Source: Candidatus Saccharimonadia bacterium
GTDB lineage: Bacteria > Patescibacteriota > Saccharimonadia > Saccharimonadales > 2-12-FULL-41-12
Assembly (NCBI GenBank): GCA_963717365.1
Contig: OY970327.1
Coordinates: 863,752 to 927,751, forward strand
DNA: 64,000 bases
Reading direction: 5' to 3'
Part shown: positions 8,821 through 64,000 of the stretch, piece after piece
Layout: each line of letters begins with the position of its first letter
Numbering within the stretch: the stretch's first letter is position 1
Translations under genes and position numbers: made by a program
Notes under the pieces: generated by a model
What the model was told of the DNA's origin: nothing
Database searches by the model: none
What the model saw: the letters and a program-made list of their open reading frames with translations, nothing else

Positions 8821-8828
8821 AAATTATT

Positions 8829-9938
8829 TTAACTTACCTGTTTTATAAGATACTGTGCCAAGTCGTCGAGGAACTGCACTGTTTCGGGAGTCCACCGTTT
8901 TGCGTATTGCTTAAGCGAGCCGCGAGCCGCATCAATATGATTAGCGGCAGCTTTTTTAGCATTCACAATCGCTCCGGAGCCGATTAAAATGTCTTTGCAT
9001 CTCTGAAATTCATCCTCGCACAGAGCTTGATTCCCCAAGCAGGACGCCAGAAAAGCGGCATTGTCAGGCGTAGCATGACGTAGTGCATACTCAGTTAACA
9101 AGGTTTGCTTGCCTTCTCGGATATCATCACTGGCAGTCTTACCACTTTCTCCTGTCTGGCTTAGCACTTTTAGGTCATCGATAATCTGGAATGCTTTACC
9201 TGTGTGCAGCGCGTATTCGATGATTGCGTTGGTATCTTCGCAAGGAGCGCCGGCTAAAACCATTCCCATGTGAATAGGGTTTAAAAAACTGTAATGAGCA
9301 GTTTTCCATTGTAGAACATTTTCAATTTCAGATACTGTTACTTTTTCTGAAGTTATTTCGTTAATAATATCATGTGTCTGTCCGTGAACGGTTACGGCCA
9401 TGGTGTGGTTCATGATATTAATAGCTTTGACGCGTAATTCATCACTTACATCCAGGTTCGCAAGCAGCATTTCGGCCCGATGCAAACCAAGCAGCGCAGC
9501 ATTTATGGCAAGCGACATTCCGTTATGCACGGGTTCGCCTTTCCATTTTTCTAGCACGTGTGCGGACTCAAGTAATTTATGGGCACTTGGGCCTCCCCTA
9601 CGCAGCGCTCCTCTGTCTTGGATATCATCGATAATGAGAATGTAAGCATGTATCATCTCCACTGCCCGGGCGGCATGGATGATCATCGTCTGGTTGGTGC
9701 CACCACACATTTCGTAACCAACCATTGCTAGAGTCCCACGAAGACGTTTGCAGTCTCGTTGGAGTATATCGCTGAAGGTATCACTAACGAGTAACGATGG
9801 AGTACCATAGGTTTGCTTTGTCTGCCCTGCGACTTCTGCGCAGTACTCTGCGATATCATCGTCTATCAACTGTTTGTATTCATTAAGCTGTTGCTTGAAC
9901 ACATTTTGAGAAGATTCTGTCGGAACAGCACGACTCAT
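8829..9938 (-). CDS. polyprenyl diphosphate synthase (FPP/GGPP synthase family)
   Basis: First and second Asp-rich motifs LIIDDIQDRGALRRG and FQIIDDLKV. Confidence 0.9.
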   Translation of the reverse strand: MSRAVPTESSQNVFKQQLNEYKQLIDDDIAEYCAEVAGQTKQTYGTPSLLVSDTFSDILQRDCKRLRGTLAMVGYEMCGGTNQTMIIHAARAVEMIHAYILIIDDIQDRGALRRGGPSAHKLLESAHVLEKWKGEPVHNGMSLAINAALLGLHRAEMLLANLDVSDELRVKAINIMNHTMAVTVHGQTHDIINEITSEKVTVSEIENVLQWKTAHYSFLNPIHMGMVLAGAPCEDTNAIIEYALHTGKAFQIIDDLKVLSQTGESGKTASDDIREGKQTLLTEYALRHATPDNAAFLASCLGNQALCEDEFQRCKDILIGSGAIVNAKKAAANHIDAARGSLKQYAKRWTPETVQFLDDLAQYLIKQVS

Positions 9939-25795: not shown

Positions 25796-26974
25796 ATGTC
25801 AGAGCAATTACCAAACTACGAAAAAACCCGTATTAATGATGAGGATAAGGCACGCCATATGGCAGATTATATGGATGGGATTATGGAGGCCGCACTTGAA
25901 TCTAAGGAAGCAAAGCTTGATGCCGAAAAAAATATTCCGATGCTACAGGGAGCACTTGACGAGTGGACGCATCAAGCCGCTGGCCGAGTATTAAATGAAC
26001 TGTACCCTGAAAAAGACTACGCGCCTACCATTGGTAATGCGCAACACTTGCTGTCTGAGCATAAGCGTATTGTTAAAAGCCGGAAAAAACGAGAAGTCAC
26101 ATATCGTCGGCAGGCCGATGAAATTGCTCAGGAAGCCGGTGACCGGTATGATGCCAAATTAGCTGAAAAAGAACGTCGGCACCTCGCCGCACAGAAAATA
26201 ATGGCAACCTATGCCACCTTACAACGGGAAGACGAGTCTCAGACCAGAATTCAGGATGAAGACAAAGCCCATGTTATGGCACATGCGGCTGACTGGTGGG
26301 CTGGTATTTCAGCTGATCACCGCGCACAAAACGAAGACGATAGCTGGACGCAAAAAACGGCTGATCGCCAAGCCGAAGAAGTCGGCAAAGTCTACGACCA
26401 GAAACAAGCCGAACGTGCCCGCGATTACAGCCAGCTAAGCCGCGCTGAGGAACCAAAAACCCGTATTGAAAATGAAGACAAAGCCCAGGAAATAGCCAAT
26501 AAAATAAAACAGAATATGGATATTGCCGCCGGGTATTACCCCTATGGTTCTTACGAGTCTCAAGAAGAATTTAAGAATTCAAAGTTAGCTGAGACTGAAG
26601 CAGATAAGTTAGGGAAACTAGCAGACGCAAACCGTGATGTGATTTACGCCGGCTATTACTATGATCTGGCCCATAGCCAGCTAGAGGCCCGGGTAGATGA
26701 CACTCTAAAGGCATACATTATGGCTGACCGGGCCGATCATCATATATCAGCGGCGCTAGAGATCGAAAAAAGCGGCGATAACCCACAAGCTGCAGCTGCT
26801 CAGCGCCAAGAAGCTAAACGATGGGCCAACATTATGGGCAGCGAATATGATCAGTACGGCCCGCAGATTGCCGGCCAGGTAACCGTCATGAATATTGACG
26901 AAGAAACCGGCACTGTTCAGCGGATAGATCCTGGTGTTTTGATTTCGAAAAACGATACTAAGCGGAATGACTAA
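25796..26974 (+). CDS. hypothetical protein with four internal ~75-aa repeat modules
   Basis: aaggag SD; recurring TRI(N/Q/E)DEDKA..MA motif at about aa 11, 150, 222 and (degenerate) 299, each followed by a GDRYD/GKVYD-type segment. Confidence 0.65.
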   Translation: MSEQLPNYEKTRINDEDKARHMADYMDGIMEAALESKEAKLDAEKNIPMLQGALDEWTHQAAGRVLNELYPEKDYAPTIGNAQHLLSEHKRIVKSRKKREVTYRRQADEIAQEAGDRYDAKLAEKERRHLAAQKIMATYATLQREDESQTRIQDEDKAHVMAHAADWWAGISADHRAQNEDDSWTQKTADRQAEEVGKVYDQKQAERARDYSQLSRAEEPKTRIENEDKAQEIANKIKQNMDIAAGYYPYGSYESQEEFKNSKLAETEADKLGKLADANRDVIYAGYYYDLAHSQLEARVDDTLKAYIMADRADHHISAALEIEKSGDNPQAAAAQRQEAKRWANIMGSEYDQYGPQIAGQVTVMNIDEETGTVQRIDPGVLISKNDTKRND

Positions 26975-30922: not shown

Positions 30923-31936
30923 CTATCGGCGCTGTCTTTTAATTTCGTTGACATGCTCAATAATCGCTTTTAAAGATACGCCATTATTCATATTCGAGAT
31001 TCGTTCAGCGTAATCCGGCCGATCATAACTGGCCAGCACCGGCACATCGGGATGATGCGCCAGCTGCTTAAACTCATTGCGCAGCCTTAGGGCATCTTTG
31101 TCAACTTCTGGAAAACGGCGGCTTAAGAACCAGGCGCCTAGTCTTTGTGTACTATTTACTGATTGTCCAGACAAACGATCATCCCGGTCGTCAACTCCCC
31201 GGCCTGTCGGATCTTTCGCTTTATACCAAACTGGCAAATCTATGTTCGTTTGCGAACCATCTGACCTTCTATGTATGCCCTTCATCCAGTACTCGCTGGC
31301 AATTTGCGAAGTTGGAAAGGCTTTTTCGAAAAACCGCTGCGCGATCTGTAGGGTACGCCCGGATGTATAAACCTCGTCAATAATGAGTATAGTTTTGTTA
31401 TCAAGCGACGATTCCACGGTGTCAATTTCTTCGGTTAAGCCATTTTCTTTTTCAGTAGGCTTAACAAATATGGATCGTAAGCTGCGCACGATACTGGTAT
31501 CTACTTCATCAATATCCATATAACCGGTACCGCCCGGGTCTACCTTGTTAACCCACTGCTCCCGGTCAATATTTACAAATTTAAAGTCGGGCTTTTTGGC
31601 TACTTCACCCGTGCTAGGATCGGCGGCCATTTGCGGCCATAATTCTTTGGTAAGCCATGCCAGCGGACGAGCGGACTTATCAAGCCAAACAACAACATCG
31701 GGAATCTTTTTCTCCTTCTCACCGGTTTCTTTACTTTCTACTTCCACACCATGGGTCATCAAATAGATGAGGTTGTCGGTACGCTGGATGTATTCCATGC
31801 GCAATTGCTGGTCTGTCTTGTATTTTCCGTCCGCACGGTTATGACCAATTAATAATTCATATTCAAAATTATCCGCTGGCACCTGCGGTTCATCTGCTTC
31901 TGGAGCGGGAAATGGGTGAGGTTTTCGTTCTAGCAT
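30923..31936 (-). CDS. phosphoribosyltransferase-domain protein
   Basis: Type I PRT PRPP-binding motif NKTILIIDEVYTSGRTL; the rest is not recognised. Confidence 0.6.
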   Translation of the reverse strand: MLERKPHPFPAPEADEPQVPADNFEYELLIGHNRADGKYKTDQQLRMEYIQRTDNLIYLMTHGVEVESKETGEKEKKIPDVVVWLDKSARPLAWLTKELWPQMAADPSTGEVAKKPDFKFVNIDREQWVNKVDPGGTGYMDIDEVDTSIVRSLRSIFVKPTEKENGLTEEIDTVESSLDNKTILIIDEVYTSGRTLQIAQRFFEKAFPTSQIASEYWMKGIHRRSDGSQTNIDLPVWYKAKDPTGRGVDDRDDRLSGQSVNSTQRLGAWFLSRRFPEVDKDALRLRNEFKQLAHHPDVPVLASYDRPDYAERISNMNNGVSLKAIIEHVNEIKRQRR

Positions 31937-43767: not shown

Positions 43768-43812
43768 TTTAGAATCTAGATTTTGTTAGGGAATGGCTAT
43801 ACAGTAGTGATC

Positions 43813-44835
43813 ATGAATATAGCTAGAGGAATAGTGAGCTGGATCAGCTTATACCTAGTAGGTATCTTTTTTGTCCTAACCGCGAGTATGTACGCGTTAT
43901 TTGGCACAATAAACGCTGATATTATTGCCAAGACACTCCAGGAAGAAAATACATACTCCAAAATAGTGCCTGCGGTTTTGTCGAGCGCAGAAAAGGATAC
44001 GACTGGCAGCATACACCAATTACCGCTCCAATCACCTTGGGTCCGAAGCGCTGCTGAAACGGCTTTTCCGCCGTCTGATCTGCAACAAAAGAGTGAAGTT
44101 GCCATAAACAGTACCTTCGCCTGGTTGGAAGGGAAGACCTCCAAACCAGAATTTACGATTGATTTTAGCCAAAATAAGCAACGTTTTAGCGAGGAACTTG
44201 GTAAAAATCTGGAGCAGCAACTGAGTAGCTTACCCCCTTGTGGCCTGAGCAATATACCTACTTCGGTTAATGTTTATACCGCCACTTGCTTGCCGCCTGG
44301 GGTTAGCCCGGGGCAAGTTAAAAGTGTTGTTAGCCAGCAAATCGCAACCGATACCAGCTTCTTGAAGGATCCAATTTTTTCTTCCGATGATTTAACGAAA
44401 GAAAAAAGTACCCTAGAAGGAGTAGGCGCACCTGCCGTCATAAAAGAAAATCCGTTAACTGGGTTAGACGGATTGCGGGGCCTGTTCGAAAATAAGAATT
44501 TGTTGCTATGGTTGCTGCCTATCATCACCGTAGCGCTAGTTGTCATGGGTGTTCTTTTGGCAACAAGTCGGGAGAAAGCGCTACGGCGCCTAACACGATC
44601 ATTCTTTTTTTCAGCCATTGGCTTACTCGCCGTTGGGCTCGTATTGGGCTATGTCGTAGACCAATTGGGCGCTCTAGAAACAACTGACGCAGTAGCAAAC
44701 GATTTGCTTAGGCCTGTTTTTCTTAACCTGACCACGCAGTTAGCAACCTATTTCTTCATCTCCGCCGGCATTGGCCTGTTGATGGCAATAGTACTATTCG
44801 CCGGTCGAAGACAAATGAAACAACATACGTTTTAA
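43813..44835 (+). CDS. hypothetical polytopic membrane protein with a large extracytoplasmic loop
   Basis: Trimmed to the ATG (MNIARGIVSWISLYLVGIFFVL); N-terminal TM, ~230-aa loop, 3 C-terminal TM segments. Confidence 0.6.
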   Translation: MNIARGIVSWISLYLVGIFFVLTASMYALFGTINADIIAKTLQEENTYSKIVPAVLSSAEKDTTGSIHQLPLQSPWVRSAAETAFPPSDLQQKSEVAINSTFAWLEGKTSKPEFTIDFSQNKQRFSEELGKNLEQQLSSLPPCGLSNIPTSVNVYTATCLPPGVSPGQVKSVVSQQIATDTSFLKDPIFSSDDLTKEKSTLEGVGAPAVIKENPLTGLDGLRGLFENKNLLLWLLPIITVALVVMGVLLATSREKALRRLTRSFFFSAIGLLAVGLVLGYVVDQLGALETTDAVANDLLRPVFLNLTTQLATYFFISAGIGLLMAIVLFAGRRQMKQHTF

Positions 44836-49185: not shown

Positions 49186-50424
49186 ATGGAAAAACGAACA
49201 CCTCGGGCAGAAGATGAAACCAACCAGCAACCTAATAATAGATTTCAACAATTTCTTGATACATCACAACGGTTTCTTGGAGCGACTGGCGCGACTTTAG
49301 CTCTGTTAGGAGTTGGACCAGCAGTGGCAAATGCCAACCATTCTGAAACATATCCTAAAGCGCCTAGCCCAAAAAATGTGCTCAAAAAGCCATCTTCCTT
49401 GTCAGGATACAATGTACCGCTTAGCCCCGAGACAAGACGGCAAGGGGCAGAAGCTACCGTACAGATACGATTTAGGTACACAAATATGGATAACAGCGAT
49501 GAGCAGCCGTGGCAGCAGGGCTGCACGGCAGTGAAAACTACGATTGACGGGCAGGTTCGCCTTTCAACTGCGGCCCATTGTTTTGATATGTTAACCGAAG
49601 CCCGGGGAGGACTAATAGAAGATAAACCCGGAGACCCAAAGGCAGTTGATTTTATAGAACAAGCCAACGCTTTTATTGAGTATGCTGTCTTTGATCCTAA
49701 AGTACGGGTAGCATCTCTCCGCAAGCCTCTGGCTAAAATTGATGGTATATCAATTGGGAAAAAGCAGGATTGGGCTTTACTAAGTGTAACCCCGCTTGAA
49801 ACTCCGCCCGAAGATGTGCCTCGTACTTTTGAACAAATCCCGGCTTTAAAATTGGCCAGCAAGCAGAGCGAGGCAGTACCCCGGCCAGCTCGCGGGCAAA
49901 GAGTTTCTCTGAACGGAATGCCTGCAGCCACAGGCGATAAGCAATCATCAAGCTTGGGGCGATATTTAGGACGAATACGCGTAACCAACCAAGATGGTAT
50001 CCAGACATATCTTGATGTTGTTGGCAGTAAGCCCAAGACAATGGCTGAAGATAGTTGCTTACCTGGGGCTAGCGGTGGATCCTTTACGGCTACAATCGGA
50101 GGTAAGTTAACCTATGTATCGGGCGCCTATCAACAGATTGTTAATGAAACCTGGGCTCCTGCTCTCTTTAATGGATACCCACAGGACTCGCAACCCACAG
50201 ACGTAAGCAACGAAATTGAAGCCAATAAATACTGGAGAACTGTTTTCCAAAATCAACTTGGAGTAAATACTAAAACTTTTAGTACGTTATGTGGTTTTAC
50301 CGTGAACCTGCCTAACTCTGTTAATACACTGAATTCAGGTTTTGGTGTTTCTATCCCTGCTCAACCAGTAGGTTTTGACAACGGTAAAGGCGGCACTGAC
50401 GGTGATTCAGTCAGTATGAAATAA
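49186..50424 (+). CDS. secreted trypsin-like (S1) serine protease homolog
   Basis: Signal-like LGATGATLALLGVGPAVANA; His motif STAAHCFD; Ser motif CLPGASGGSF. Confidence 0.7.
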   Translation: MEKRTPRAEDETNQQPNNRFQQFLDTSQRFLGATGATLALLGVGPAVANANHSETYPKAPSPKNVLKKPSSLSGYNVPLSPETRRQGAEATVQIRFRYTNMDNSDEQPWQQGCTAVKTTIDGQVRLSTAAHCFDMLTEARGGLIEDKPGDPKAVDFIEQANAFIEYAVFDPKVRVASLRKPLAKIDGISIGKKQDWALLSVTPLETPPEDVPRTFEQIPALKLASKQSEAVPRPARGQRVSLNGMPAATGDKQSSSLGRYLGRIRVTNQDGIQTYLDVVGSKPKTMAEDSCLPGASGGSFTATIGGKLTYVSGAYQQIVNETWAPALFNGYPQDSQPTDVSNEIEANKYWRTVFQNQLGVNTKTFSTLCGFTVNLPNSVNTLNSGFGVSIPAQPVGFDNGKGGTDGDSVSMK

Positions 50425-51900: not shown

Positions 51901-52464
51901 ATGCTTATGCAACCAGGTACTGATCAGGATAGCAACGCGAACTGGGCTTTTCGCAATGAGGATGAGGCGTACGGCGAACCGTCTTCCGACGCGCCGGAGA
52001 CCCAGATAGAGCCGGTGAGCTGGACGGCTTCAGAGTTTATCGCGCACCATAAAGATCCTGTCTGGTACGGCACGCTTGTGGGGGCTGTGCTGACGCTTTG
52101 CGTCGCTATCTACTTCGTCACTAAAGATGTTATTTCAATTATAGCCATTGTGGTGGTAGCTATTTTATTTCTGATTGCCAGCGCCAAGAAGCCTGAGCAA
52201 CGGCTCTATATGGTAGACTTGCAGGGAATCTCGATTGGCCAGAAATTTTATCCCTACGGTATGTTTAAATCATTCGCCTTACGCCAAGAGGGCGCAATTG
52301 GCACAATTACCTTTATGCCGCTGCAGCGGCTAATGCCAGAAATTTCAATTTATTTCGCACCTGAGGATGAGGACAGCATTGTCGACGTTTTAGCAAGCAG
52401 CCTGCCAAATGACCAGCGGGCAGAACGCAGTACCGACCGCCTAATGAAGCGCTTGCGATTTTAA
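51901..52464 (+). CDS. hypothetical membrane protein
   Basis: 187 aa; acidic N-terminus, two TM segments (WYGTLVGAVLTLCVAIYFV, IIAIVVVAILFLIA), soluble C-domain. Confidence 0.6.
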   Translation: MLMQPGTDQDSNANWAFRNEDEAYGEPSSDAPETQIEPVSWTASEFIAHHKDPVWYGTLVGAVLTLCVAIYFVTKDVISIIAIVVVAILFLIASAKKPEQRLYMVDLQGISIGQKFYPYGMFKSFALRQEGAIGTITFMPLQRLMPEISIYFAPEDEDSIVDVLASSLPNDQRAERSTDRLMKRLRF

Positions 52465-52696: not shown

Positions 52697-53161
52697 ATGA
52701 AAAATACAATAAACAGATTACCTCGAATTACTGGCTACCAATCTGTTGACTTAAGCTCTGATGATATAGCCGTGGGTCCTGGCCGCAGTGCGCAGACTCA
52801 CGTTGAAATACGTCAACCTGCCTATATAAAAGCTGGCGGAAATGTGCTAAGACTATCTTTAATAGGCCGACAGGCTCACCCTGAACATGGTGACTACGAG
52901 GATATTTTTGAAGTTGAGAATCTTAGTTCTCCAGATAATGACGCGAGGATGACTATTACGGAACAAACAGTAGTTGGACGCCAAACAACTCCCGAACTAC
53001 AGCTCGATGATACAGCCAGCAGAAGCCACCTAAAAATTACACCCATGGCAAGCGCTGTATTAATCTCAGATCTTGATAGCACCAATAGCACAGTTGTACA
53101 GGCTGTCAATCTTAAAACGGACTACACGCTAGTTAACCAGCCTATTCCTCCTAATCTATAA
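52697..53161 (+). CDS. FHA domain-containing protein
   Basis: C-terminal VVGRQTTPELQLDDTASRSHLKI...ISDLDSTNSTVV matches the FHA core (GR...SR.H...D..S.NG). Confidence 0.65.
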   Translation: MKNTINRLPRITGYQSVDLSSDDIAVGPGRSAQTHVEIRQPAYIKAGGNVLRLSLIGRQAHPEHGDYEDIFEVENLSSPDNDARMTITEQTVVGRQTTPELQLDDTASRSHLKITPMASAVLISDLDSTNSTVVQAVNLKTDYTLVNQPIPPNL

Positions 53162-53967: not shown

Positions 53968-54336
53968 CTAAATACTCTTGTCCGGGGTTATGTTATCGTC
54001 CATGGTTTTATGAGTAATAAATGTTGCAACTAGGTAGTAGCCGTCTATTCTAGTCTTGAGCGGCACGATATCACCATCAAAGACTATCTTCATTTGGTTC
54101 TCGGGTACACAAAGCTCATTGATTTGCTCATCGGTAAGCTGCCCGTCAAAATTTTCTGGCGGATCACATTTATACACTGTTGTGATAATATCCTCCTCGT
54201 CACATTCCACCACGGCGATTTTACCAATTTTGCCTCCGGTAACTTCAAGGTCAACAACGTAGCTTTGGCATGCCAGCAGCTCTACCAGCGGACGTTCGTT
54301 CTCATGGGGCACTTGCTGTGTAATAAATGTGGGCAT
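53968..54336 (-). CDS. hypothetical protein
   Basis: 122-aa ORF, tightly spaced (14 nt) behind the 54351 ORF. Confidence 0.5.
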   Translation of the reverse strand: MPTFITQQVPHENERPLVELLACQSYVVDLEVTGGKIGKIAVVECDEEDIITTVYKCDPPENFDGQLTDEQINELCVPENQMKIVFDGDIVPLKTRIDGYYLVATFITHKTMDDNITPDKSI

Positions 54337-54350
54337 AGTATTATGTCTTC

Positions 54351-54959
54351 TTATGATTTGGGGTTAATTATTGTCATGTTTACGTTTTGCATGGGCGGAT
54401 CGGTCGTAAAATCCATGGCCAGCACCGCATAATGACCCATTGGCGACTGGTCGGTCTTTATGGCTATTATGCCGCGTTCATTTCCATCTACAAATTCACC
54501 GCTGATAGTTCTGGGTATATTGGGATACAAAAACTTGGGCGTCAAATGATCGAAATATCCGTACACGCCATTGACGGGCTTAAAGTCCACAACGGTGAAG
54601 CTTAGTGATTTGCCAGCCAGCAGAAGATTTGCGTGCATTGTTTGAAATTTTCTATAAACACCCTCCAAATCTCTCCTTAGTGCAAGTTGTAATTCAGTTT
54701 CGCCAAGGGAATAGTGGGCCTCGAGGATATCCGGCCCGACTTCAAAGCCCTCTATGGCAATGCGGGATATATCTTTAATGTGTTTTTTCCTTTGCCTACG
54801 AATCAACTTGCGTTCAATAGCCGCCTCAATTGTTTGCTGGTCCCATAATAAGCTAGTCTGCTGGCTTAAAGCTTTGGTAGCCTGGTGCGTCTCACGATAA
54901 ATATCAAATACTTGTGCCTCGGTAGACTGCTGCATTTCAGGTGTTTGAACAGTATTCAT
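54351..54959 (-). CDS. hypothetical protein
   Basis: 202-aa ORF; no motif recognised. Confidence 0.55.
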   Translation of the reverse strand: MNTVQTPEMQQSTEAQVFDIYRETHQATKALSQQTSLLWDQQTIEAAIERKLIRRQRKKHIKDISRIAIEGFEVGPDILEAHYSLGETELQLALRRDLEGVYRKFQTMHANLLLAGKSLSFTVVDFKPVNGVYGYFDHLTPKFLYPNIPRTISGEFVDGNERGIIAIKTDQSPMGHYAVLAMDFTTDPPMQNVNMTIINPKS

Positions 54960-55477: not shown

Positions 55478-56152
55478 CTACGCCTTAAAGGCGAACACGG
55501 CCGCGTCAATCTTGGCCGGCTGATAGGTAGAGAGTGCCCAAGCGGCCGTTTGGAGGGTAGCGCCAGTCGTTAGTACATCATCTATGACCAGCAGGTGCTG
55601 GCCGCGCAACTGGTTGCCGTTACGAACCTTAAAGGCGTTTTCCAGCTGGGCAAAACGCTCTGTGCGGCTGGCGCCCACCTGGCGGGTATTTTTAACCCTC
55701 CAGAGGGTTTGTAAGTACGTATAGCGACGGCGGGCGGCAAACTGGCGCGATATTAGCTGGGCTTGGTCGTAACCGCGCAGGCGGACGCGATTAGCAACCG
55801 TTGGCACTGTAGTCACAATAATATCGGGGGGAAGAGGTGGCAGCTGCTGGTTCAGCCATTCGGCGATAACGTATGCGGCAGCTTTAGTTCGTTGGAATTT
55901 AAGCAGCGACACAAGCTGCCGGGCTATTCCGGTATATTCCGCGCCGATCCAAAGATTGCCTATTGGGGTGCTGGTGCTGCATCCAGCGCAAGTAGCAAAA
56001 TCTGGAGATGACTGGCCGCATTTATAGCAACGAGCAGGGGGCGGTATTATTTTTAACTTTGCGCAAGGTGAGCATAATGGAGAGTCTTCCCGTTTGCAGG
56101 CAAGACAGGTATGCGGTGCCAGCAGGGCAATGCTACGCTCTATAATGTTCAT
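55478..56152 (-). CDS. comFC: ComF family protein (ComFC-type phosphoribosyltransferase)
   Basis: N-terminal Cys clusters CLACKRE..CSPC / CYKCG..CAGC; PRT motif LLVIDDVLTTGATL. Confidence 0.85.
   Translation of the reverse strand: MNIIERSIALLAPHTCLACKREDSPLCSPCAKLKIIPPPARCYKCGQSSPDFATCAGCSTSTPIGNLWIGAEYTGIARQLVSLLKFQRTKAAAYVIAEWLNQQLPPLPPDIIVTTVPTVANRVRLRGYDQAQLISRQFAARRRYTYLQTLWRVKNTRQVGASRTERFAQLENAFKVRNGNQLRGQHLLVIDDVLTTGATLQTAAWALSTYQPAKIDAAVFAFKA
55483..55519. repeat. direct repeat copy B (authentic 3' coding end of comFC)
   Basis: gcgaacAcggccgcgtcaatcttggccgg at 55491-55519 encodes ...PAKIDAAVFAFKA-stop on the minus strand. Confidence 0.9.
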
Positions 56153-56348: not shown

Positions 56349-56849
56349 ATGGCGCGACGGAATCGCGATGAAGATCTATTGATGGAAGACGAACTTACCG
56401 CCGCTTTCTTGGGTGACGATGAATTTAATTCGACAGATGATCAACCGCAGACAAATGATGACAGCACAGGGACAGCCGCGCAAGGACAAGCGACAGCAGA
56501 CGAATGGGATGAAGAAGACGCTGTTCCCGGACAACTTGCCGTTGATGTATACGAAACTCGTGAACGCCTTGTTGTAAAAGCTCGCACCGCTGGTGTGAAC
56601 AAGCCTGATCTTGATGTCAGCATCTCTGATAACACACTAAGTATCCGCGGTACACTGAGCGCTGGCAACGAAGAAGACGTTGAGAACTATTTTGTACAAG
56701 AATGTTATTGGGGTGAATTTAGCCGCAGTATCGCCTTGCCGGTTCCTGTCAAAGAAGACGAGATCGAAGCCGTCCTCAAAGATGGTGTCCTGACCGTAAG
56801 TTTTACCAAAGTGAAACAAGACACCGTGAAAAAGATCCAGGTACTTTAA
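56349..56849 (+). CDS. Hsp20/alpha-crystallin family small heat-shock protein (second copy, acidic N-terminus)
   Basis: ggaggg SD; LAVDVYETRERLVVKARTAGVNKPDLDVSISDNTLSIRG...FSRSIALPVPV...AVLKDGVLTVSF. Confidence 0.9.
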   Translation: MARRNRDEDLLMEDELTAAFLGDDEFNSTDDQPQTNDDSTGTAAQGQATADEWDEEDAVPGQLAVDVYETRERLVVKARTAGVNKPDLDVSISDNTLSIRGTLSAGNEEDVENYFVQECYWGEFSRSIALPVPVKEDEIEAVLKDGVLTVSFTKVKQDTVKKIQVL

Positions 56850-57076: not shown

Positions 57077-57547
57077 TTAAGATGTAGTTACGTCTGCTGA
57101 TTTGCCAAGGACAAAGCGGACGATGAACTGCGCAAGGGCAACGATGACAAGACCTATAATAGCGTACAGGATAGTGTTTTTGGCACCGGTGACATTACCA
57201 CTGTCACCACCGGAGGTGATGTACTTGAATCCACCGTATACGATCATAATGACCGCGATGATACCAACGATTAAGGAGAACAAGTTAACAATTGTTCTTA
57301 CGATAGTATTAAAACGTGTGTTGGTGTTAGCAGCTGTGGCAGCACAGGCAGCAGTACCTGTTCCGACTGTATCAACTTCGTTTGGTATATCAAGTTTACT
57401 ACTTGAGTGACATACGGCTTCGCTTACTCCACCAGCACCGGTCCCGGTAGCGTCACCAGAAAACTGCGCGCTTGCCGTTGCAGGCACTAGGAATAGCAGC
57501 CCGCCGAACACAGTAACGGCTAGTGCGGCAAATATATTTTTTAACAT
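57077..57547 (-). CDS. T4SS pilin-like protein (VirB2/TrbC-type), paralog 1
   Basis: Signal peptide MLKNIFAALAVTVFGGLLFLVPATASA; 2 Cys; conserved C-terminal hairpin LIVGIIAVIMIVYGGFKYITSGGDSGNVTGAKNTILYAIIGLVIVALAQFIVRFVLGK. Confidence 0.75.
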   Translation of the reverse strand: MLKNIFAALAVTVFGGLLFLVPATASAQFSGDATGTGAGGVSEAVCHSSSKLDIPNEVDTVGTGTAACAATAANTNTRFNTIVRTIVNLFSLIVGIIAVIMIVYGGFKYITSGGDSGNVTGAKNTILYAIIGLVIVALAQFIVRFVLGKSADVTTS

Positions 57548-57655
57548 TTTGATTATAAACCTTTCTTAATATTCTTTTTATTTTACACTATGTCTGAATA
57601 ATACATCAATATGCTTATGATTACTACTATTTTACGGGTTAGGGGTAGGAGGAGC

Positions 57656-58075
57656 TCAGGTAGGAACATCAACTGCCTTACCAAGGACAAAGCGGACGAT
57701 GAACTGCGCAAGGGCAACAATTATTAATCCTATCAAGGCATAGGTAATGGTAGTTTTGGCAGAAGTGATCTTACCAGAATCTCCACCAGAGGTAATATAC
57801 TTGAAACCTCCTATCACAATAAAGACAACGGCCACAATACCGGTGATAAGGCTTATAAGGTTAACAACATTTGCTATCAGCTTATTAACAGCTGTGGTAG
57901 GCCCGGTAGAATCTGCTCCGGCGCAACTTGGAGCAGCGTCCAGGTCTACTTCGGCGCCGGCACAGGTATTGGAGCGAGTGTCTTGTGCCGTTACTAAATT
58001 ACCGCTAAAAACCATCGAGAGACTAAGAACTGACACGAATGCAAAAGCGGCCAGAATAAAAGTACGTTTTATCAT
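57656..58075 (-). CDS. T4SS pilin-like protein, paralog 2
   Basis: Signal peptide; Cys pair NTCAGAEVDLDAAPSC; ITGIVAVVFIVIGGFKYITSGGDSGKITSAKTTITYALIGLIIVALAQFIVRFVLGK. Confidence 0.75.
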   Translation of the reverse strand: MIKRTFILAAFAFVSVLSLSMVFSGNLVTAQDTRSNTCAGAEVDLDAAPSCAGADSTGPTTAVNKLIANVVNLISLITGIVAVVFIVIGGFKYITSGGDSGKITSAKTTITYALIGLIIVALAQFIVRFVLGKAVDVPT

Positions 58076-58476
58076 GTGGCTTTCCCAATCACGAACCGGA
58101 CAAATACTTGGGCGAGGGCAACTACAATTAAGCCAACTGCCGCGTAAATAATGCCATTCCTGGCCGAGGTGATGGCGTTGGAGTCACCGGCAGAAGTTAT
58201 AAACTTAAATCCGTTTACGATAATCATGACCACAGCCACAATACCAACGACTAAGGACAATACGTTGATGACATTCTTAATTGTGTTTTCCAGGGTACCG
58301 GCGGCTTCTTTCTCTTTACAGTTCGCGTTGGTGCCATCGAGGTTAGCGCCTTTACAGGCTGCTCCTTTGGAACCTTCAAAAATCGCTGCCGCAGGATCAG
58401 CAAAGCTGAGCACGGCAAAAAGTCCGACCAGAACGGAAATTATTAAGCTAGTTTTCTTCAGAGATAGTGTCTGCAT
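58072..58476 (-). CDS. T4SS pilin-like protein, paralog 3
   Basis: Signal peptide; Cys pair ACKGANLDGTNANC; VVGIVAVVMIIVNGFKFITSAGDSNAITSARNGIIYAAVGLIVVALAQVFVRFVIGK; 4-nt overlap with paralog 2. Confidence 0.75.
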   Translation of the reverse strand: MQTLSLKKTSLIISVLVGLFAVLSFADPAAAIFEGSKGAACKGANLDGTNANCKEKEAAGTLENTIKNVINVLSLVVGIVAVVMIIVNGFKFITSAGDSNAITSARNGIIYAAVGLIVVALAQVFVRFVIGKAT

Positions 58477-58478
58477 TT

Positions 58479-58880
58479 TTATATAAATCCTACTTTTCCT
58501 ATTATAAACCTTACGAGGACTTGCGCCAGTGCCGCAATTATTAACCCGACAAAAGCATAGAGAATTCGCTCACGCGCCTGAGTCACATCTTGCGGATTAC
58601 TACCAGAGGAAATGTATTTGAGCCCGGCCAATATGATGATGATAACCGCAACGATACCAGTGATGACTGATAACAGGTTTATGACAGTGGTAAGTATACC
58701 TTTTGGCCCAAAGATTGGGTTTTCAGCATCTGCTGCAGGGTTATTGTCTACGCAGATAGAAGAACTTGCCGTCCTACCTGTGCAATTTTTTCCAATGACA
58801 TCCACCGCGCTTACCGAAGCAGGAATGGTCAGCAGGGGAATGGCTAAAAGCGATACAAGTAAAAGATAGCGTTTTAACAT
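58479..58880 (-). CDS. T4SS pilin-like protein, paralog 4
   Basis: Signal peptide; Cys pair NCTGRTASSSIC; ITGIVAVIIIILAGLKYISSGSNPQDVTQARERILYAFVGLIIAALAQVLVRFIIGK. Confidence 0.75.
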   Translation of the reverse strand: MLKRYLLLVSLLAIPLLTIPASVSAVDVIGKNCTGRTASSSICVDNNPAADAENPIFGPKGILTTVINLLSVITGIVAVIIIILAGLKYISSGSNPQDVTQARERILYAFVGLIIAALAQVLVRFIIGKVGFI

Positions 58881-58882
58881 AG

Positions 58883-59215
58883 TTAAAGCCTTCCCACCAC
58901 GGTAAGCACTATAACCTCGGCGCTGAGCGAAACCATTAAGCCAATCAAGGCGTAGATAATAGTCTTTTTGGCTTTTGATATAGCTTCGGGGTTACCTTCG
59001 GCCGTGACGTAGCTGATAGCCCCTAGAATGATTACCAGTACGGTTATGGCAGCTATGGCACCGAATAGAATGGCAAGACCTTTCTGTAATTCCGCTTCAT
59101 TGGCTGCTACCTTTGGTATCCCACTGAGACAATTTGTGCCGGTTTCTTCGCCGGTACAGTTTTTACGCTGCTCAACTTTTGTTTGGGCAAATGTGTATAG
59201 TAATGATTTGATCAT
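58883..59215 (-). CDS. T4SS pilin-like protein, paralog 5 (shortest, weak signal peptide)
   Basis: Cys pair NCTGEETGTNC; LFGAIAAITVLVIILGAISYVTAEGNPEAISKAKKTIIYALIGLMVSLSAEVIVLTVVGR. Confidence 0.7.
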   Translation of the reverse strand: MIKSLLYTFAQTKVEQRKNCTGEETGTNCLSGIPKVAANEAELQKGLAILFGAIAAITVLVIILGAISYVTAEGNPEAISKAKKTIIYALIGLMVSLSAEVIVLTVVGRL

Positions 59216-59970
59216 CCTTGGAACCTTCCTGCAATAAAGCTTATAACGGTTGTGGCAATAATAGCCAATAGCATTCCTATAAGTGCATCCACCACAGTAT
59301 TCTTGGCTTTGCCGGTTTTTTCTGGGTTGCCCTGAGAGGTCGTGTATTTAACTCCACCAATAATAACGAAGGCAATCGCGACTAAAATTGCTAGCCGCAA
59401 CAATATTTCACCCACCGCTAACACAATTAACCAGATGTCACTCAGCCCGCTGAGTTGAGGGTTACAGTCTGTTCCGGGCTCTTTATCTAGGTATTTGTAC
59501 CAGGTAGGGAAGCCAAAGAAACTGCCGCGGCACGAGTCCGGAACAGCAGCACCTGCTCCTCCGGCGGCACCACCACCCGATCCACCGCCACCGCCGCCGC
59601 TTCCACCGCCGGCGGCACCACCACCGCCGCCCGCTGCTTCGGCAGCGGCTAGATCACCAACTACCTGGTTCTTGCCGAGCAGATAGCCAGTATTACAACT
59701 ACTTCTCTCGGCTGATGGCCGGCGGCCACAGACTTGATTTTGATTTTCGACTTTATAGCCGGCGCGATAACCAGCCCGGCAGGAGGCTTGCTGCGTTTCA
59801 TTAGCCCGCGTGCTACAGGCTCTTTCAGCAGCCGCCTGAAGCGCTTCGGTGTTTTTCACCTGCGCGTCAGCCGGCGGGGGCATAACAAGCGTAAGGCCCA
59901 GGATACTTATAAGCCCGATGATCAGCCAAAGAATATGCCGATGGATTAGTGATTTAGTCATGCGGCACAA
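59212..59970 (-). CDS. enlarged pilin-family protein, paralog 6 (6 Cys, Gly/Ala tract)
   Basis: N-terminal TM/signal; Cys-containing repeats; AAGGGGGAAGGGSGGGGGGSGGGAAGGAGAA tract; C-terminal hairpin VAIAFVIIGGVKYTTSQGNPEKTGKAKNTVVDALIGMLLAIIATTVISFIAGR. Confidence 0.7.
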   Translation of the reverse strand: MCRMTKSLIHRHILWLIIGLISILGLTLVMPPPADAQVKNTEALQAAAERACSTRANETQQASCRAGYRAGYKVENQNQVCGRRPSAERSSCNTGYLLGKNQVVGDLAAAEAAGGGGGAAGGGSGGGGGGSGGGAAGGAGAAVPDSCRGSFFGFPTWYKYLDKEPGTDCNPQLSGLSDIWLIVLAVGEILLRLAILVAIAFVIIGGVKYTTSQGNPEKTGKAKNTVVDALIGMLLAIIATTVISFIAGRFQG

Positions 59971-60757
59971 TACCCAAGCTGTGAATTATTAGGTCGGCTG
60001 TGAATAGTGTTCCGGCGAAAACTCCACCAGGTACCAGATATTGTAGCAACGAGAAAGAGACCAAGTACAAGAACAGGCCGACAATTACATTTTGAATCCG
60101 ACTTTTTGCAGCTTGGCTAGCCTCGGCGTTGCCCTCGGAGGCAGAATACTGAATACCTGAAATAATCATAGCCATCACTAACACAATGCCAATACCGTAA
60201 GAAAGAAAGCGGATGATGGCATAGGTCATATCCTCAATGGGGCCCATACCGGCTGGACCATTGTCGCCAATGCAACCAAAGTTAAAGCGTGTTGTTACTT
60301 GATCGCCAGCCGTAGCGTTACCGCATTTATGCCCTTCGGCAGAGGTGTTACTAGCAGCACGCGGAGATAGTAGCTTGTCGTTAGCGGGATCAACTGGATC
60401 GTCTGCGGGGTCTGCTGTTGGGTCTGCGGGGTTAGAGCCGGTCGAAGCGGGCGGGGCAATAGAATCACCTGGAGTGCTTCCGCCACCAGACGTGGCTGGT
60501 TTGTTTGTATACCTCGAAATTACTCTTCGTTCGCACTCTTCTTTATCGCTCTGAGAAGAAACACTCGTACACTCCTGTAGTACTTTGGCTTTACAGGCGT
60601 CTTTATTAATTTTTATGTCGCAAGTGGCCGACTGGCTGGCTTGCGCTCCAACTTGTGCCGGAACATTATTAGCAGCAATAACAATAAAGAAAGATGTGAG
60701 AGCCCACACTGCAATGAGCAGTATTTTTGCTGGCTTAGAAATTGAGAGATATGTCAT
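59954..60757 (-). CDS. enlarged pilin-family protein, paralog 7 (6 Cys, Pro/Asp-rich linker), first gene of the operon
   Basis: Signal/TM; CDIKINKDACKAKVLQECTS...EECERR; PADPTADPADDPVDPAND linker; C-terminal hairpin GIVLVMAMIISGIQYSASEGNAEASQAAKSRIQNVIVGLFLYLVSFSLLQYLV. Confidence 0.65.
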   Translation of the reverse strand: MTYLSISKPAKILLIAVWALTSFFIVIAANNVPAQVGAQASQSATCDIKINKDACKAKVLQECTSVSSQSDKEECERRVISRYTNKPATSGGGSTPGDSIAPPASTGSNPADPTADPADDPVDPANDKLLSPRAASNTSAEGHKCGNATAGDQVTTRFNFGCIGDNGPAGMGPIEDMTYAIIRFLSYGIGIVLVMAMIISGIQYSASEGNAEASQAAKSRIQNVIVGLFLYLVSFSLLQYLVPGGVFAGTLFTADLIIHSLGIVPHD

Positions 60758-60914
60758 GGATTTTGATTTTTAGCTTATTTAAGTCTAAGTATGCATCCAT
60801 TTTGGGTTTTTTTCAACAGAAAGCCTGTTTGGAGAGTCCAAAATCACTGCTCGACTTCTAGCCGCGTGTGTTTTATTATTAAGCGTAAGGAATATGTCTT
60901 AGAATTTAAAGATT

Positions 60915-61877
60915 ATGGTGATAAAGAAACAAAAGACCAAAAAATTTTATATTTTGCTCGTTGCGGCGGTCAGTTTTTTGTCAGTTTTTAGCATTTTGCT
61001 TCCATCACCACAACCTGTCTCGGCACAGGGTAGCGGTAACAACCTTTTGGCTAACATGGGTAAAAGTTGTAATAAGATGAAAAAAACAGGCAGTGAAGTG
61101 AGTGACGCCGATACGCTTTGGTATGGCTGCGAAAGAATACAAGATGCCCTCAAAGAAAAGTTTGGCTGTGACGGCGGAATGTTCTATTCGGTTGATAAGG
61201 CGACTGATCCGGATGACCCGAGTGTTACGCAGACGCTTTGGTATACTAACGCACAAAAATACAGTGCTTGCGTCGGGAAAGTACAAGCACAATTGAATCT
61301 TATAAAGTCTGCTGAGTGCGCATCTATGCGCCATAGTTCTTTTGATGATTCCATTGATAGCCCAGCATGGAAAAAGTGTGAAAAATCACAAAATAACCTA
61401 GCTGCGTTAATCGGATGCGACTCCGGTATGTTTGAAGAAATCCCGAACAAAGAAAATCTTTGGAGACCCATACCAGCCAAACTCACTAGCTGCCAAACAA
61501 AGATTGACACCGCAAAAAATACTAAGCTAACTGATTCTGATGGCAATGAAACTACAGCGGAAACGGCAGCTCCTCCGCCCGCCAGCGCCGGCGGAGGTTC
61601 GGGTAGTGGGTCTACAGATCCTGCAACGCCGGATTGCGATGCCACTAAAGGCGTGCCCCTGAGCTGGATCATCTGCCCGGTTATCGATTCTGGCGTTAAT
61701 ATGACAGACTACGCTTTTAATAAACTTATCCGGCCGTTACTAGAAGATATACCGGTTAGTATTAACCCTGATGACCCATCTTTTAAAGCCTGGAGCAGCT
61801 TCCGCATCCTAGGTAACGTGCTGCTGGTGGGAAGCTTATTAATGGTGGTTTATTCACAGGCAAGGGGGCCTAAATAA
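60915..61877 (+). CDS. secreted Cys-module repeat protein with C-terminal TM anchor (T4SS locus)
   Basis: Signal peptide FYILLVAAVSFLSVFSILLP; three modules of type (L/A)W..C(E/..)...L....(F/I)GCD(G/S)GMF; poly-Gly/Ser linker; C-terminal ILGNVLLVGSLLMVVY. Confidence 0.65.
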   Translation: MVIKKQKTKKFYILLVAAVSFLSVFSILLPSPQPVSAQGSGNNLLANMGKSCNKMKKTGSEVSDADTLWYGCERIQDALKEKFGCDGGMFYSVDKATDPDDPSVTQTLWYTNAQKYSACVGKVQAQLNLIKSAECASMRHSSFDDSIDSPAWKKCEKSQNNLAALIGCDSGMFEEIPNKENLWRPIPAKLTSCQTKIDTAKNTKLTDSDGNETTAETAAPPPASAGGGSGSGSTDPATPDCDATKGVPLSWIICPVIDSGVNMTDYAFNKLIRPLLEDIPVSINPDDPSFKAWSSFRILGNVLLVGSLLMVVYSQARGPK

Positions 61878-63868
61878 TGTTAGACGCATACGCCGTACGT
61901 AAAGCTATCCCCCGTATTGTCTTGGCGGTAATTGCTATAAATCTGTCGATCTACTTATGTGTTGCAGCCCTAGACCTTATCGAAGTCATTGGACGCGGCA
62001 TGAACAATTTACTGGTATCACCGTTTATTGATGGCGCGGATTACAAAGGGACAAAGATTGAAAGCAATGCCGAGACTGGCATCGTAGGCGTAATCGGAGT
62101 AGCAGGTTTCTTAGGGGGACTCACAGCCGCAATATTTGTAGCTATTACAAACCCGCTTGCTATCCTTGGTTTTTTGCTGCCTTTACTGGGAACTGTCGCT
62201 CTAATCGCGGTGGCAATCTTGTTTACTCTGGTAGTTCGGCAAGGTTTACTAGTCTTTCTTATTATTATTTCGCCGGTGGCAATTGTTTGTTATGTACTAC
62301 CGGGAACAGAAAAATACTTTAAGCAGTGGTTTGACCTCTTCCTAAAAACCTTGATGATTTACCCAATTATTGCCGTGATATTTGCAATGTCCAATGTGTT
62401 GGCCGCCATATTACTTACTAACGCCAGTGGTAGCGCTGCCAGTGCCTTTACTAACCCGGCATCTGCCTTTCAGAGTGCCTTTACCTTTGCTCAAACAGAG
62501 ACTTCCGATGCGTCCGGAGTCGTGAAACTCTTGGTCGCTATTATTGTTATATACGCTCCGCTAGCTTTAATCCCATTCTCGTTTAAGTTAGCCGGCGGCG
62601 CGATTGGCCAAATTGCTAACGTCGCTAACAAGCAAGCCAGCGGTTCTGCAGCTGGCCTTCGTAACCGCATAGCAAAATCCAAGGAAGATCCGGACAGTAC
62701 ATTTGGTAAAGCTAAACTAAAAGCAAAGAGCCAGCGCGTTGACAGCGGCATGACCATGCGCCAGATAGCTGCCAGACGTCCCGGAGCGAATCGAGCTCAA
62801 CGAATGTCTGCTGCCAGAGAATATGACCAGAAGAAGGTTACTGCGCAGTCTCAGGAAGGTTTTGGCTTTAAATCCTACCAGCAAGACAGTGACGTTATGC
62901 AGAGTCTGGTGATGAATGACCAAGAAGTCTCTCTCCATAGAGCCACGCAAACCAGAAATCTAGAACAGGCGAGAGCTGCCGTTGCGCAAACAGAAACAGA
63001 TCGAGCAAATGGCACGATTGGAGCACAAGAGTATAGCGATCGTATGGCCGAACAACAAGGCAACGTTACTGCAGCAGAACGTCAACTTGCCGCCCACTCT
63101 GTTGCTGACCGCATTGGGCGTACCGGCGCTAATAGGCGGGCCGCATTTCTTAACGCTGATCGTATTAAATACAACCCGACGGACGGGCAAATTGGCTATG
63201 AAGACAACTTGGCACGTGCCGAGGAAATATTCGGGGGTGGCAGCTCAACCGCTGAAGCTATGAACGCGTTCCAGGCAATAGCTAAAGGCCCTGCCGGACG
63301 TGCCGACCTATCTGGCCAACTCTACGGCCGAGCATACGACCTGGATCGTGCAACCGGCGCTCAGTCAACTTATACTCTTATGAATCAAGGGCGTCCTGAT
63401 AGTGTGGCGCAGTTAGCCGACCAACATATTGACAGAGTTAACGACGTCAATGCAAGTGAGGAGGAGAGACAGCGTTCAGCGGCATTTCTGCATACTTTGA
63501 GACAGGCTAAGGGGCAGGGAACTGAGGCAAACAATGCTGTTGTTAACGAGAGATTAGGCAGAATGGATGGTGCACTCACTGGACATGTTGCTAGGAGGGC
63601 TCAACACCACGCAGCTAATGCAGCTACAGTGCCTATAGCTGAAATGAGAAACACTACGGTGACCGAGCCAGATACCCGCCCAGGGGCAGCGCCAGGAGCG
63701 ACAGTTACTCGTGAACGCCAAGAACGAGTTGTCTTAACGCCACAACAACGAACAGACCGAGCTAGACAAGAGGCCGAAAGAACTGCACGTAGAGAACTAG
63801 TAGATCAGTCTCAGGCATACAGCCAGCCAGACCCGCACGAACGAGAACAGCAACAGAATGGGCCATAG
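61877..63868 (+). CDS. VirB6/TrbL-like polytopic membrane protein with ~400-aa hydrophilic C-terminal tail
   Basis: About 6 TM segments in the first ~250 aa, then a Gln/Arg/Ala-rich soluble tail; ATG overlaps the upstream stop (taATG). Confidence 0.6.
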   Translation: MLDAYAVRKAIPRIVLAVIAINLSIYLCVAALDLIEVIGRGMNNLLVSPFIDGADYKGTKIESNAETGIVGVIGVAGFLGGLTAAIFVAITNPLAILGFLLPLLGTVALIAVAILFTLVVRQGLLVFLIIISPVAIVCYVLPGTEKYFKQWFDLFLKTLMIYPIIAVIFAMSNVLAAILLTNASGSAASAFTNPASAFQSAFTFAQTETSDASGVVKLLVAIIVIYAPLALIPFSFKLAGGAIGQIANVANKQASGSAAGLRNRIAKSKEDPDSTFGKAKLKAKSQRVDSGMTMRQIAARRPGANRAQRMSAAREYDQKKVTAQSQEGFGFKSYQQDSDVMQSLVMNDQEVSLHRATQTRNLEQARAAVAQTETDRANGTIGAQEYSDRMAEQQGNVTAAERQLAAHSVADRIGRTGANRRAAFLNADRIKYNPTDGQIGYEDNLARAEEIFGGGSSTAEAMNAFQAIAKGPAGRADLSGQLYGRAYDLDRATGAQSTYTLMNQGRPDSVAQLADQHIDRVNDVNASEEERQRSAAFLHTLRQAKGQGTEANNAVVNERLGRMDGALTGHVARRAQHHAANAATVPIAEMRNTTVTEPDTRPGAAPGATVTRERQERVVLTPQQRTDRARQEAERTARRELVDQSQAYSQPDPHEREQQQNGP

Positions 63869-63876
63869 TATTTTAG

Positions 63877-64000
63877 ATGGCAACCTATAAAGTAATCCAG
63901 GATATTGAGGCGGAGGATAAGTTCCTTGGGCCGTTGACGCTTAAACAGTTTGTGTTTGGGGCAGCCGGCTTATTCTTTGGTTATCTGAGTGTCTATGCCA
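63877..64000 (+). CDS. PrgI/VirB3-like small T4SS membrane protein, N-terminal 41 codons (runs off right edge)
   Basis: Hand translation MATYKVIQDIEAEDKFLGPLTLKQFVFGAAGLFFGYLSVYA matches the PrgI-family N-terminal pattern (..V..DI..EDK..GPLT.KQF). Confidence 0.6.
   Translation, partial: MATYKVIQDIEAEDKFLGPLTLKQFVFGAAGLFFGYLSVYA

Follow-up and report, generated by a model that had tools for sequence, protein, structure and literature searches.

Collinear classes of VirB2-like pilin genes and a split VirB6-like gene in a probable chromosomal type IV secretion locus of a Saccharimonadales bacterium

An apparent secretion system of type IV (T4SS), SEML1_0006-0019, is required by Candidatus Southlakia epibionticum ML1 to grow as an epibiont (Wang et al. 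2023, PMC10633639). In the supplementary tables of that study, the six genes matching the pilin family PF18895 (SEML1_0014-0019) are all scored essential, as is the adjoining Hsp20 gene (0020) but not the ComF gene (0021). Furthermore, Quinonero-Coronel et al. 2025 (PMC12102498) catalogued 441 VirB2 arrays of 2-11 genes in 383 Patescibacteria assemblies, especially in Saccharimonadia, and the 'Sec-secreted array' of Nanosynbacter lyticus TM7x is grouped with these arrays. Here, we analyse a 64,000-nucleotide stretch of a Saccharimonadales (Saccharibacteria) genome (assembly GCA_963717365.1, contig OY970327.1, positions 863,752 to 927,751), this whole stretch being called the window below. With a probability of about 0.8, the joint best explanation of our data is that positions 57077-64000 are the promoter-proximal half of a chromosomal Patescibacteria-type T4SS locus. 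Since the published S. epibionticum locus and the catalogued VirB2 arrays match it, this kind of locus is already known and the window carries a further instance of it, not a new kind of system.

The locus comprises two divergent operons: seven pilin genes on the minus strand versus the VirB6 pieces and the start of a PrgI/VirB3 gene on the plus strand. An earlier reading of the DNA letters (the original prediction) had placed seven tandem minus-strand genes at 57077-60757, opposite genes for a secreted Cys-rich protein and a polytopic protein and an open reading frame (ORF) starting MATYKVIQDIEAEDKF. All these ORFs are present, and the spacing given for the array (-17 to +3 nt, the last gene excepted at 108 nt) agrees to within 1 nt with the -17, -4, +2, +2 and -4 nt, then 108 nt ahead of the last gene, that we find. 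The features are as follows (cut-offs: 26.6 bits for PF18895, 27.9 for PF04956, 27 for PF12666 and 25.9 for PF04610):

57077..57547, minus strand: p1, class A pilin, 156 aa (PF18895 61.8 bits, PF04956 30.4 bits)
57656..58075, minus strand: p2, class A pilin, 139 aa (PF18895 56.3 bits)
58072..58476, minus strand: p3, positional class B pilin, 134 aa (PF18895 47.6 bits; near class A)
58479..58880, minus strand: p4, class C pilin, 133 aa, loop SGSNPQD (PF18895 50.9 bits)
58883..59215, minus strand: p5, class D pilin, 110 aa (PF18895 35.9 bits)
59212..59970, minus strand: p6, class E pilin, 252 aa (PF18895 28.9 bits)
59954..60757, minus strand: p7, class F pilin, 267 aa (PF18895 24.5 bits, just under the cut-off)
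60758..60914, no strand: divergent intergenic region, 157 nt, presumed from its sequence to hold the promoters
60915..61877, plus strand: N-terminal half, 320 aa, of an extended VirB6 that is split in two (fusions in homologues; 1-nt overlap with the next gene)
61877..63868, plus strand: VirB6/TrbL-like polytopic protein, 663 aa (hydropathy, family-level TrbL matches)
63877..64000, plus strand: PrgI/VirB3-family gene, first 41 codons, starting MATYKVIQDIEAEDKF, cut by the window edge

Compared by gene order and annotation, not by protein sequences, the window and its relatives share with S. epibionticum ML1 ComF, Hsp20, a divergent array of PF18895 pilins, VirB6-like, PrgI, TrsD-like and VirB4 components, a ~1100-aa protein and a lysozyme, in a chromosomal position where no relaxase or coupling protein adjoins. 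S. epibionticum has six pilins instead of the seven of the window, which, from gene lengths and order only, is consistent with an extra class A copy in the latter. Its VirB6-like proteins are of 1088 and 998 aa, with a non-essential NTF2-like gene between them; in contrast, the VirB6 of the window is split into 320 and 663 aa, and there is no second VirB6-like or NTF2-like gene between VirB6 and PrgI. The catalogued Patescibacteria arrays consist of tandem, divergent VirB2-like genes near virB4, and the window array is one of them. The original prediction had presented the array as unusual and new, a view that does not stand, such arrays having been described from 2020 to 2025. Nevertheless, neither collinear pilin classes nor the VirB6 split is stated in the literature that we consulted on Patescibacteria arrays.

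Monoderm systems of the MPF-FATA type, such as PrgF/PrgH/PrgI/PrgJ of pCF10 or those of Mycoplasma integrative and conjugative elements (ICEs), also have PrgI (VirB3), VirB6-like, TrsD-like and VirB4 components and a small VirB2-like hairpin protein. However, they carry one pilin-like gene and belong to mobile elements with a relaxase and a coupling protein, whereas seven pilin genes lie here in the core chromosome.

All seven pilins match PF18895 (T4SS_pilin; E 6.7e-17 to 2.9e-5), six of them above the cut-off and p7 about 2 bits under it. Moreover, profile-profile comparison (HHalign) links class E to class A with 98.6% probability (E 7e-16) and class F to class A with 96% (E 3.5e-9). Hence, the PF18895 matches and these links of E and F to A are well outside what chance would give and indicate that the seven pilins are homologous, and the profile search that had been proposed as a check does place the small proteins in a T4SS pilin family. 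The TrbC/VirB2 family PF04956 is more selective: only p1 passes its cut-off (30.4 bits), p2 and p4 score about 24 bits and p7 10.6, and p3, p5 and p6 have no match. The p1 family includes 4742 relatives at E<=1e-5, some of them labelled 'pilin' by NCBI. All seven also match, below threshold (E 5e-8 to 8e-5), NCBIfam NF045849, the Mbov_0395-family of pilin-like conjugal transfer proteins from Mycoplasma ICEs, which hints at an origin of the pilin together with a monoderm-type T4SS and not in a diderm system. Even at E<=1, no family of holins or immunity proteins is among the Pfam matches of the small proteins, and a holin or bacteriocin-immunity reading of the hairpin proteins was dropped for this reason.

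According to hydropathy, the C-terminal end of all seven pilins consists of a short polar loop between two strongly hydrophobic helices, and in all of them a Cys pair stands directly before the first helix. The hairpin motif of the original prediction fits p1 and p2 exactly and the remaining five loosely. Its statement that most of the proteins begin with a signal peptide is supported by a hydrophobic N-terminal segment in six of the seven (hydropathy). The exception is the 110-aa p5, which lacks such a segment and has Cys20/Cys29 and two predicted transmembrane helices. p1, the last gene of the array, encodes a signal peptide, a Cys46/Cys68 pair and a hairpin with the loop GGFKYITSGGDSG; its AlphaFold2 model is a confident helical hairpin (helices 66-111 and 116-155, pLDDT ~90). 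In local BLASTP alignments, p2 is 60% identical to p1 and paralogue pairs in the array range from 22 to 60% identity. The two longest proteins are composite. Thus, p6 has a signal peptide, a Cys-rich N-terminal module of the C..C.GY type, a Gly-rich linker and a conserved FFGFPTWYKYL motif before the hairpin, and p7, the first gene of the array, has a signal peptide, a 4-Cys N-terminal module and a Pro/Gly-rich linker, followed by a conserved C..TRFNFGC motif, the hairpin and a QYLVPGGVF tail. An imperfect CCG / 15-nt tandem repeat (59585-59631) codes for the Gly-rich linker of p6 and could allow variable linker length.

The window was compared with the Saccharimonadales loci L001-L008, L004 being a second copy of the L003 locus that is cut within the large gene past VirB4. 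Fifty-two pilins of seven genomes were aligned all against all and grouped by average-linkage clustering. From the HSP20 end, the array resolves into collinear positional classes: A (1-4 copies), B, C, D, E and F. Cross-genome best matches lie within the same positional class in 300 of 312 cases, and the 12 exceptions are all between A and B. Classes C, D and E are clades with exactly one member per genome in all seven genomes, while class F, likewise with one protein per genome, stands apart from all other classes but is split into sub-clusters. In each genome, the best match of p3 is the gene adjoining class C, but clustering does not part p3 cleanly from class A. A set of six clean classes was accordingly reduced to four firm ones (C, D, E and F) plus an A/B group, since A and B merge in unsupervised clustering. 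Copy number, which the original prediction had proposed to compare across relatives, varies from two to five in the A/B group and is fixed at one for C, D, E and F. The classes also have their own signatures: D lacks the signal peptide, E has FFGFPTWYKYL before the hairpin, and in F, C..TRFNFGC precedes the hairpin and VPGG(V/L)F follows it. Orthologues share 41-77% identity in the hairpin versus 10-46% in the N-terminal part. Not every genome has the long Cys-rich N-terminal modules of E and F; for instance, the class E extension is missing in L003, L005, L007 and L008.

The spacing of the array was also compared. The 108-nt spacer before the terminal class A gene (57548-57655) is AT-rich; in L001 and L003 the corresponding spacer measures 86-92 nt, and in the four remaining genomes 11-75 nt stand before class A copies. 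The largest spacer stands before a class A copy in four of the seven genomes, and genes F to B lie close together, at -17 to +19 nt in L001, L003, L007 and the window and at up to 37 nt elsewhere. An own promoter for the presumed major pilin (class A) is possible, with consensus-level promoter matches only at this place. Likewise, promoter and terminator scans gave consensus-level matches only, little above shuffled expectation; the promoter-like ones in the divergent intergenic region (60816-60788 on the minus strand and 60851-60879 on the plus strand) are no sign of function.

Two views of these pilins can be opposed. The first, shared by the original prediction and by Quinonero-Coronel et al. 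2025 (PMC12102498), takes the seven as functionally equivalent versions of a single surface subunit, serving antigenic variation or the matching of host strains, and is modelled on the VirB2 paralogues of Bartonella and Anaplasma. In Bartonella and in Anaplasma phagocytophilum, several tandem virB2-like genes are indeed found per T4SS locus (cited in PMC12102498), and they are thought to be variants of one subunit for antigenic variation in these diderm animal pathogens. This view agrees with the divergence of the paralogues (22-60% here, 25% on average in the literature), with an A/B group whose members are each other's nearest relatives, with exposed N-terminal parts that evolve faster than the hairpins and with the coming and going of the Cys modules of E and F. 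However, whereas the survey reads the arrays as versatility towards host strains, we find ancient, collinear and individually conserved positional classes, each with its own signature: C, D, E and F remain one-to-one in 7/7 genomes although the VirB6-like proteins of these genomes are only 26-50% identical. Moreover, neither recent gene conversion nor high-identity cassettes were seen, and every one of the six S. epibionticum pilin genes is scored essential in a single host. We consider equivalent variants unlikely. Because four classes are strictly single-copy and collinear and all six S. epibionticum pilins are essential, the sequence data fit better with a fixed set of non-redundant subunits than with a pool of antigenic variants, and the claim of antigenic diversification is not supported.

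This class pattern and the essentiality in S. epibionticum suggest a heteromeric assembly of major and specialised subunits, in which the A/B group is likely to be the bulk subunit. Since lineages vary there, the pre-helix N-terminal regions, the optional Cys-rich modules of E and F and the VirB6 ectodomain are likely host-contact surfaces. A bolder proposal, towards which we lean somewhat less than against, is that at least five VirB2-like subunit types, as an obligate fixed set, co-assemble into one heteromeric pilus or conduit, host specificity residing in the swappable E/F modules and in the detachable ectodomain of the split VirB6.

Type IV pili and the pseudopili of type II secretion combine one abundant subunit with several conserved, non-redundant, low-copy ones, some of which carry extra domains. 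Their resemblance to the window pilins is an analogy only: fold and assembly machine are unrelated, and no homology is implied.

The second operon begins with the 320-aa protein, which has a signal peptide, 10 Cys and a C-terminal transmembrane helix, and whose Cys-module ectodomain is internally duplicated (E 1e-8). It has no Pfam or NCBIfam match. Across six loci only its last ~90 aa are kept, a module with the pattern CD..PLSWIxCPxID..PVSxNPxD..KAWxxFR followed by the transmembrane helix. The same module is fused in frame before the VirB6-like N-terminus in at least ten homologues (P0044, P0051, P0053, P0057, P0065, P0069, P0103, P0109, P0115 and P0120), and L007 has a fused 847-aa gene without a separate upstream gene. 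Because of these fusions, the Cys-module protein, originally taken for a separate accessory factor, is the detached N-terminal part of an extended VirB6, and the genes for the 320-aa and 663-aa proteins are its two halves, with a variable outward-facing domain.

The 663-aa protein has hydrophobic segments at residues 9-39, 67-92, 78-145 (with room for two helices), 151-185 and 209-240, that is, about six transmembrane helices in residues 1-240, beyond the five looked for as a sign of membership. These are followed by a confidently modelled, all-helical domain of ~420 aa that is probably cytoplasmic. The AlphaFold2 model of the whole protein (pLDDT 80) has long helices in residues 4-253. At the family level, 22 of 41 homologues match PF04610 (TrbL) at E<=0.01 (best 2e-7). 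Precomputed matches to PF19590 (TrbL_3) exist for many homologues, though the local Pfam copy did not reproduce them for P0004. From the family-level PF04610 matches, this protein is best filed as VirB6-like.

The PrgI start lies 8 nt after the VirB6-like stop. Its 41 aa are identical to the N-terminus of a 377-aa protein of L002 that scores 38.7 bits on PF12666 (PrgI), and the same N-terminus is found in L003, L005 and L006. L002 is the closest relative (VirB6-like protein 93% identical, DNA 76-82% identical). It runs from within the pilin array through PrgI and a TraC-like gene (PF26593) to a truncated VirB4-like gene, which starts ~2.2 kb past the VirB6-like stop and whose first 196 aa share 75% identity with the N-terminal part of the 638-aa VirB4-like ATPase of L003 (103 bits on P-loop_TraG, with AAA_10 and DUF87 also matching). 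We equate the TraC-like protein with the TrsD-like component known from the literature. Gene order in L003 and L005-L008 is ComF-like phosphoribosyltransferase, HSP20, 6-9 pilins, (secreted piece), VirB6-like, PrgI, TraC-like and VirB4-like, the last located ~2.2-5.2 kb past the VirB6-like gene, then a ~977-1186-aa protein and a lysozyme/M23 or amidase gene. L001 has HSP20, seven pilins, the secreted piece and the VirB6-like gene, followed by toxin-antitoxin genes and the contig end, before which no PrgI gene is seen. By synteny, the source genome should continue past the window edge with genes for the TraC-like protein, VirB4, a ~1000-1190-aa protein and a cell-wall hydrolase. Altogether, the T4SS assignment of the original prediction is borne out by the PF18895 matches, the identity of the PrgI start and the VirB4-like gene that relatives carry a few kb downstream.

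The gap between the VirB6-like and PrgI genes is an insertion hot spot; it measures 8 nt in the window (63869-63876). Antitoxin/PIN toxin pairs occupy it in L001 (9498-10140), L003 (12004-12643) and L005 (12000-12633). Three riboflavin genes and a 387-aa ORF are found there in L006 (12017-14843), and a 420-aa reverse-strand ORF in L007 (12571-13833). Furthermore, the ~977-1186-aa protein is always next after VirB4 (L003 16659-20147, L005 16700-20260, L006 19045-21947, L007 17965-20988 and L008 15900-18833). It has almost no Pfam signal (weak VanY or M23) and matches the essential SEML1_0007 in position.

From homology and the published essentiality, we infer the following mechanism, including filament formation, heteromeric composition and a secreted substrate. 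Sec would insert the pilins into the membrane by means of the signal peptides present on six of the seven, and they would be held there as two-helix hairpins with an outside loop that is probably disulfide-bonded. The VirB4/VirB3/VirB6 machine would then extract them and polymerise them into a short pilus or conduit crossing the cell wall toward the actinobacterial host. This structure would be heteromeric, with the A/B group as major subunit and C, D, E and F as specialised ones. The extended VirB6 is encoded by two translationally coupled genes. The essentiality of the locus is taken here from the literature and not from the present analysis.

Alternatively, the hairpin proteins might stay in the membrane (as a stator, as a channel or in lipid handling) or form only a stub spanning the wall. 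Such a role would suit the absence of any observed pilus, a fold that is a generic hairpin also resembling ATP-synthase subunit c, and a class D without signal peptide. Against this stand the homology to VirB2/TrbC-type pilins and a December 2025 preprint in which the VirB2-like PrgF is essential for conjugation by the Gram-positive plasmid pCF10, with a pilus-like assembly predicted. In addition, N-extensions with Cys modules and flexible linkers fit display outside the cell best. We regard membrane confinement as improbable, even more so than the equivalent variants, and we retain a secretion apparatus with polymerised pilins.

Concerning the substrate, the 57 kb upstream of the locus are core chromosome, with genes for PolA, DnaG, RpoD, HolA, ArgRS, GroEL, ValRS, a ClpB-like ATPase, a Mur ligase, TsaD and Fpg and three tRNA genes. 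The Pfam scan of this upstream side, which is the side of the source genome that the window covers, included 30 ORFs (every ORF of at least 280 aa and ten smaller ones). No relaxase, coupling protein (VirD4-type) or integrase family was found among them, 11 of the 30 giving no match at the E-value limits used, and the 10-kb flanks of the relatives contain no relaxase or coupling protein gene. Given a housekeeping context and no relaxase or coupling protein close by, the system most likely transfers proteins or other molecules, not DNA, between epibiont and host. The non-conjugative use put forward by the original prediction agrees with this and with the published view. That the locus would serve an integrated conjugative element as its mating-pair-formation module and transfer DNA is very improbable: PrgI, VirB4-like and TraC-like proteins are components of monoderm MPF-FATA-type conjugation systems, the pilins weakly match Mycoplasma ICE proteins, a ComF-like gene is a conserved neighbour and a recombinase gene lies 1.8 kb (L005) or 3.8 kb (L007) from it, but not in the window or other loci, whereas the locus is syntenic across distant Saccharimonadales, no integrase or element boundary adjoins it in the window, according to the literature just 103 Patescibacteria genomes have relaxases and S. 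epibionticum has a distant, non-essential coupling-protein homologue, and essentiality for growth is not expected of a conjugation module. A mobile-element reading was ruled out by the chromosomal synteny.

Several points weigh against a Patescibacteria-type T4SS with distinct pilin classes and are to be set beside the evidence above. The VirB4 gene of the source genome lies beyond the window and is known via relatives only. The 663-aa protein itself scores 17 bits on PF04610 (E 0.005), below the cut-off of this family. Foldseek comparison of its model with the Protein Data Bank (PDB) gave nothing at E<=0.001 and no solved VirB6; the top non-significant matches are alpha-helical repeat proteins (importin, condensin and 14-3-3). 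The p1 model also found nothing at E<=0.001 in the PDB, generic helical hairpins only. The Aeropyrum pernix conjugative pilin 8dfu came at rank 12 (E 3.4, TM-score 0.65 by target length), so that the fold searches with both models are uninformative, neither supporting nor refuting membership. Profile searches of solved structures likewise returned nothing relevant for the pilin or the VirB6-like family. As to the classes, A and B are not cleanly separable, and the six S. epibionticum pilins are read as F-E-D-C-B-A from gene order and lengths only. Finally, a pilus has experimentally been seen in no patescibacterium to date, and the essentiality of upstream pilin genes in transposon sequencing could partly reflect polar effects.

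On the class A side, the array is flanked by a ComF-like phosphoribosyltransferase gene (55478-56152, minus strand) and an HSP20 gene (56349-56849, plus strand). This pair occupies the same place in L003-L008 and in S. epibionticum ML1; L001 has HSP20 only, and L002 does not reach this side. Further upstream, the window contains adjoining genes for a squalene/phytoene synthase (PF00494) and a polyprenyl synthetase (PF00348) at 7978-9938 on the minus strand of this reduced Saccharimonadales chromosome, and a small FHA-domain protein at 52697-53161. Six other ORFs (122-412 aa) are without Pfam match at 1e-5 or 1e-3 (25796-26974, 30923-31936, 43783-44835, 49186-50424, 51901-52464 and 53968-54959).

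Among T4SSs, that of Patescibacteria alone has been reported to be essential for the bacterium carrying it. If its pilins are fixed, non-redundant classes, what needs explaining is how one structure is made from several VirB2-like subunits. Candidates for host recognition would then be the variable parts, namely the pre-helix loops, the E and F N-terminal modules and the ectodomain of VirB6, which are testable in the genetically tractable S. epibionticum. If the heteromeric reading is true, this would be the first heteropolymeric VirB2-type pilus, extending to these epibionts a logic of major and minor subunits previously known from type IV pili alone.

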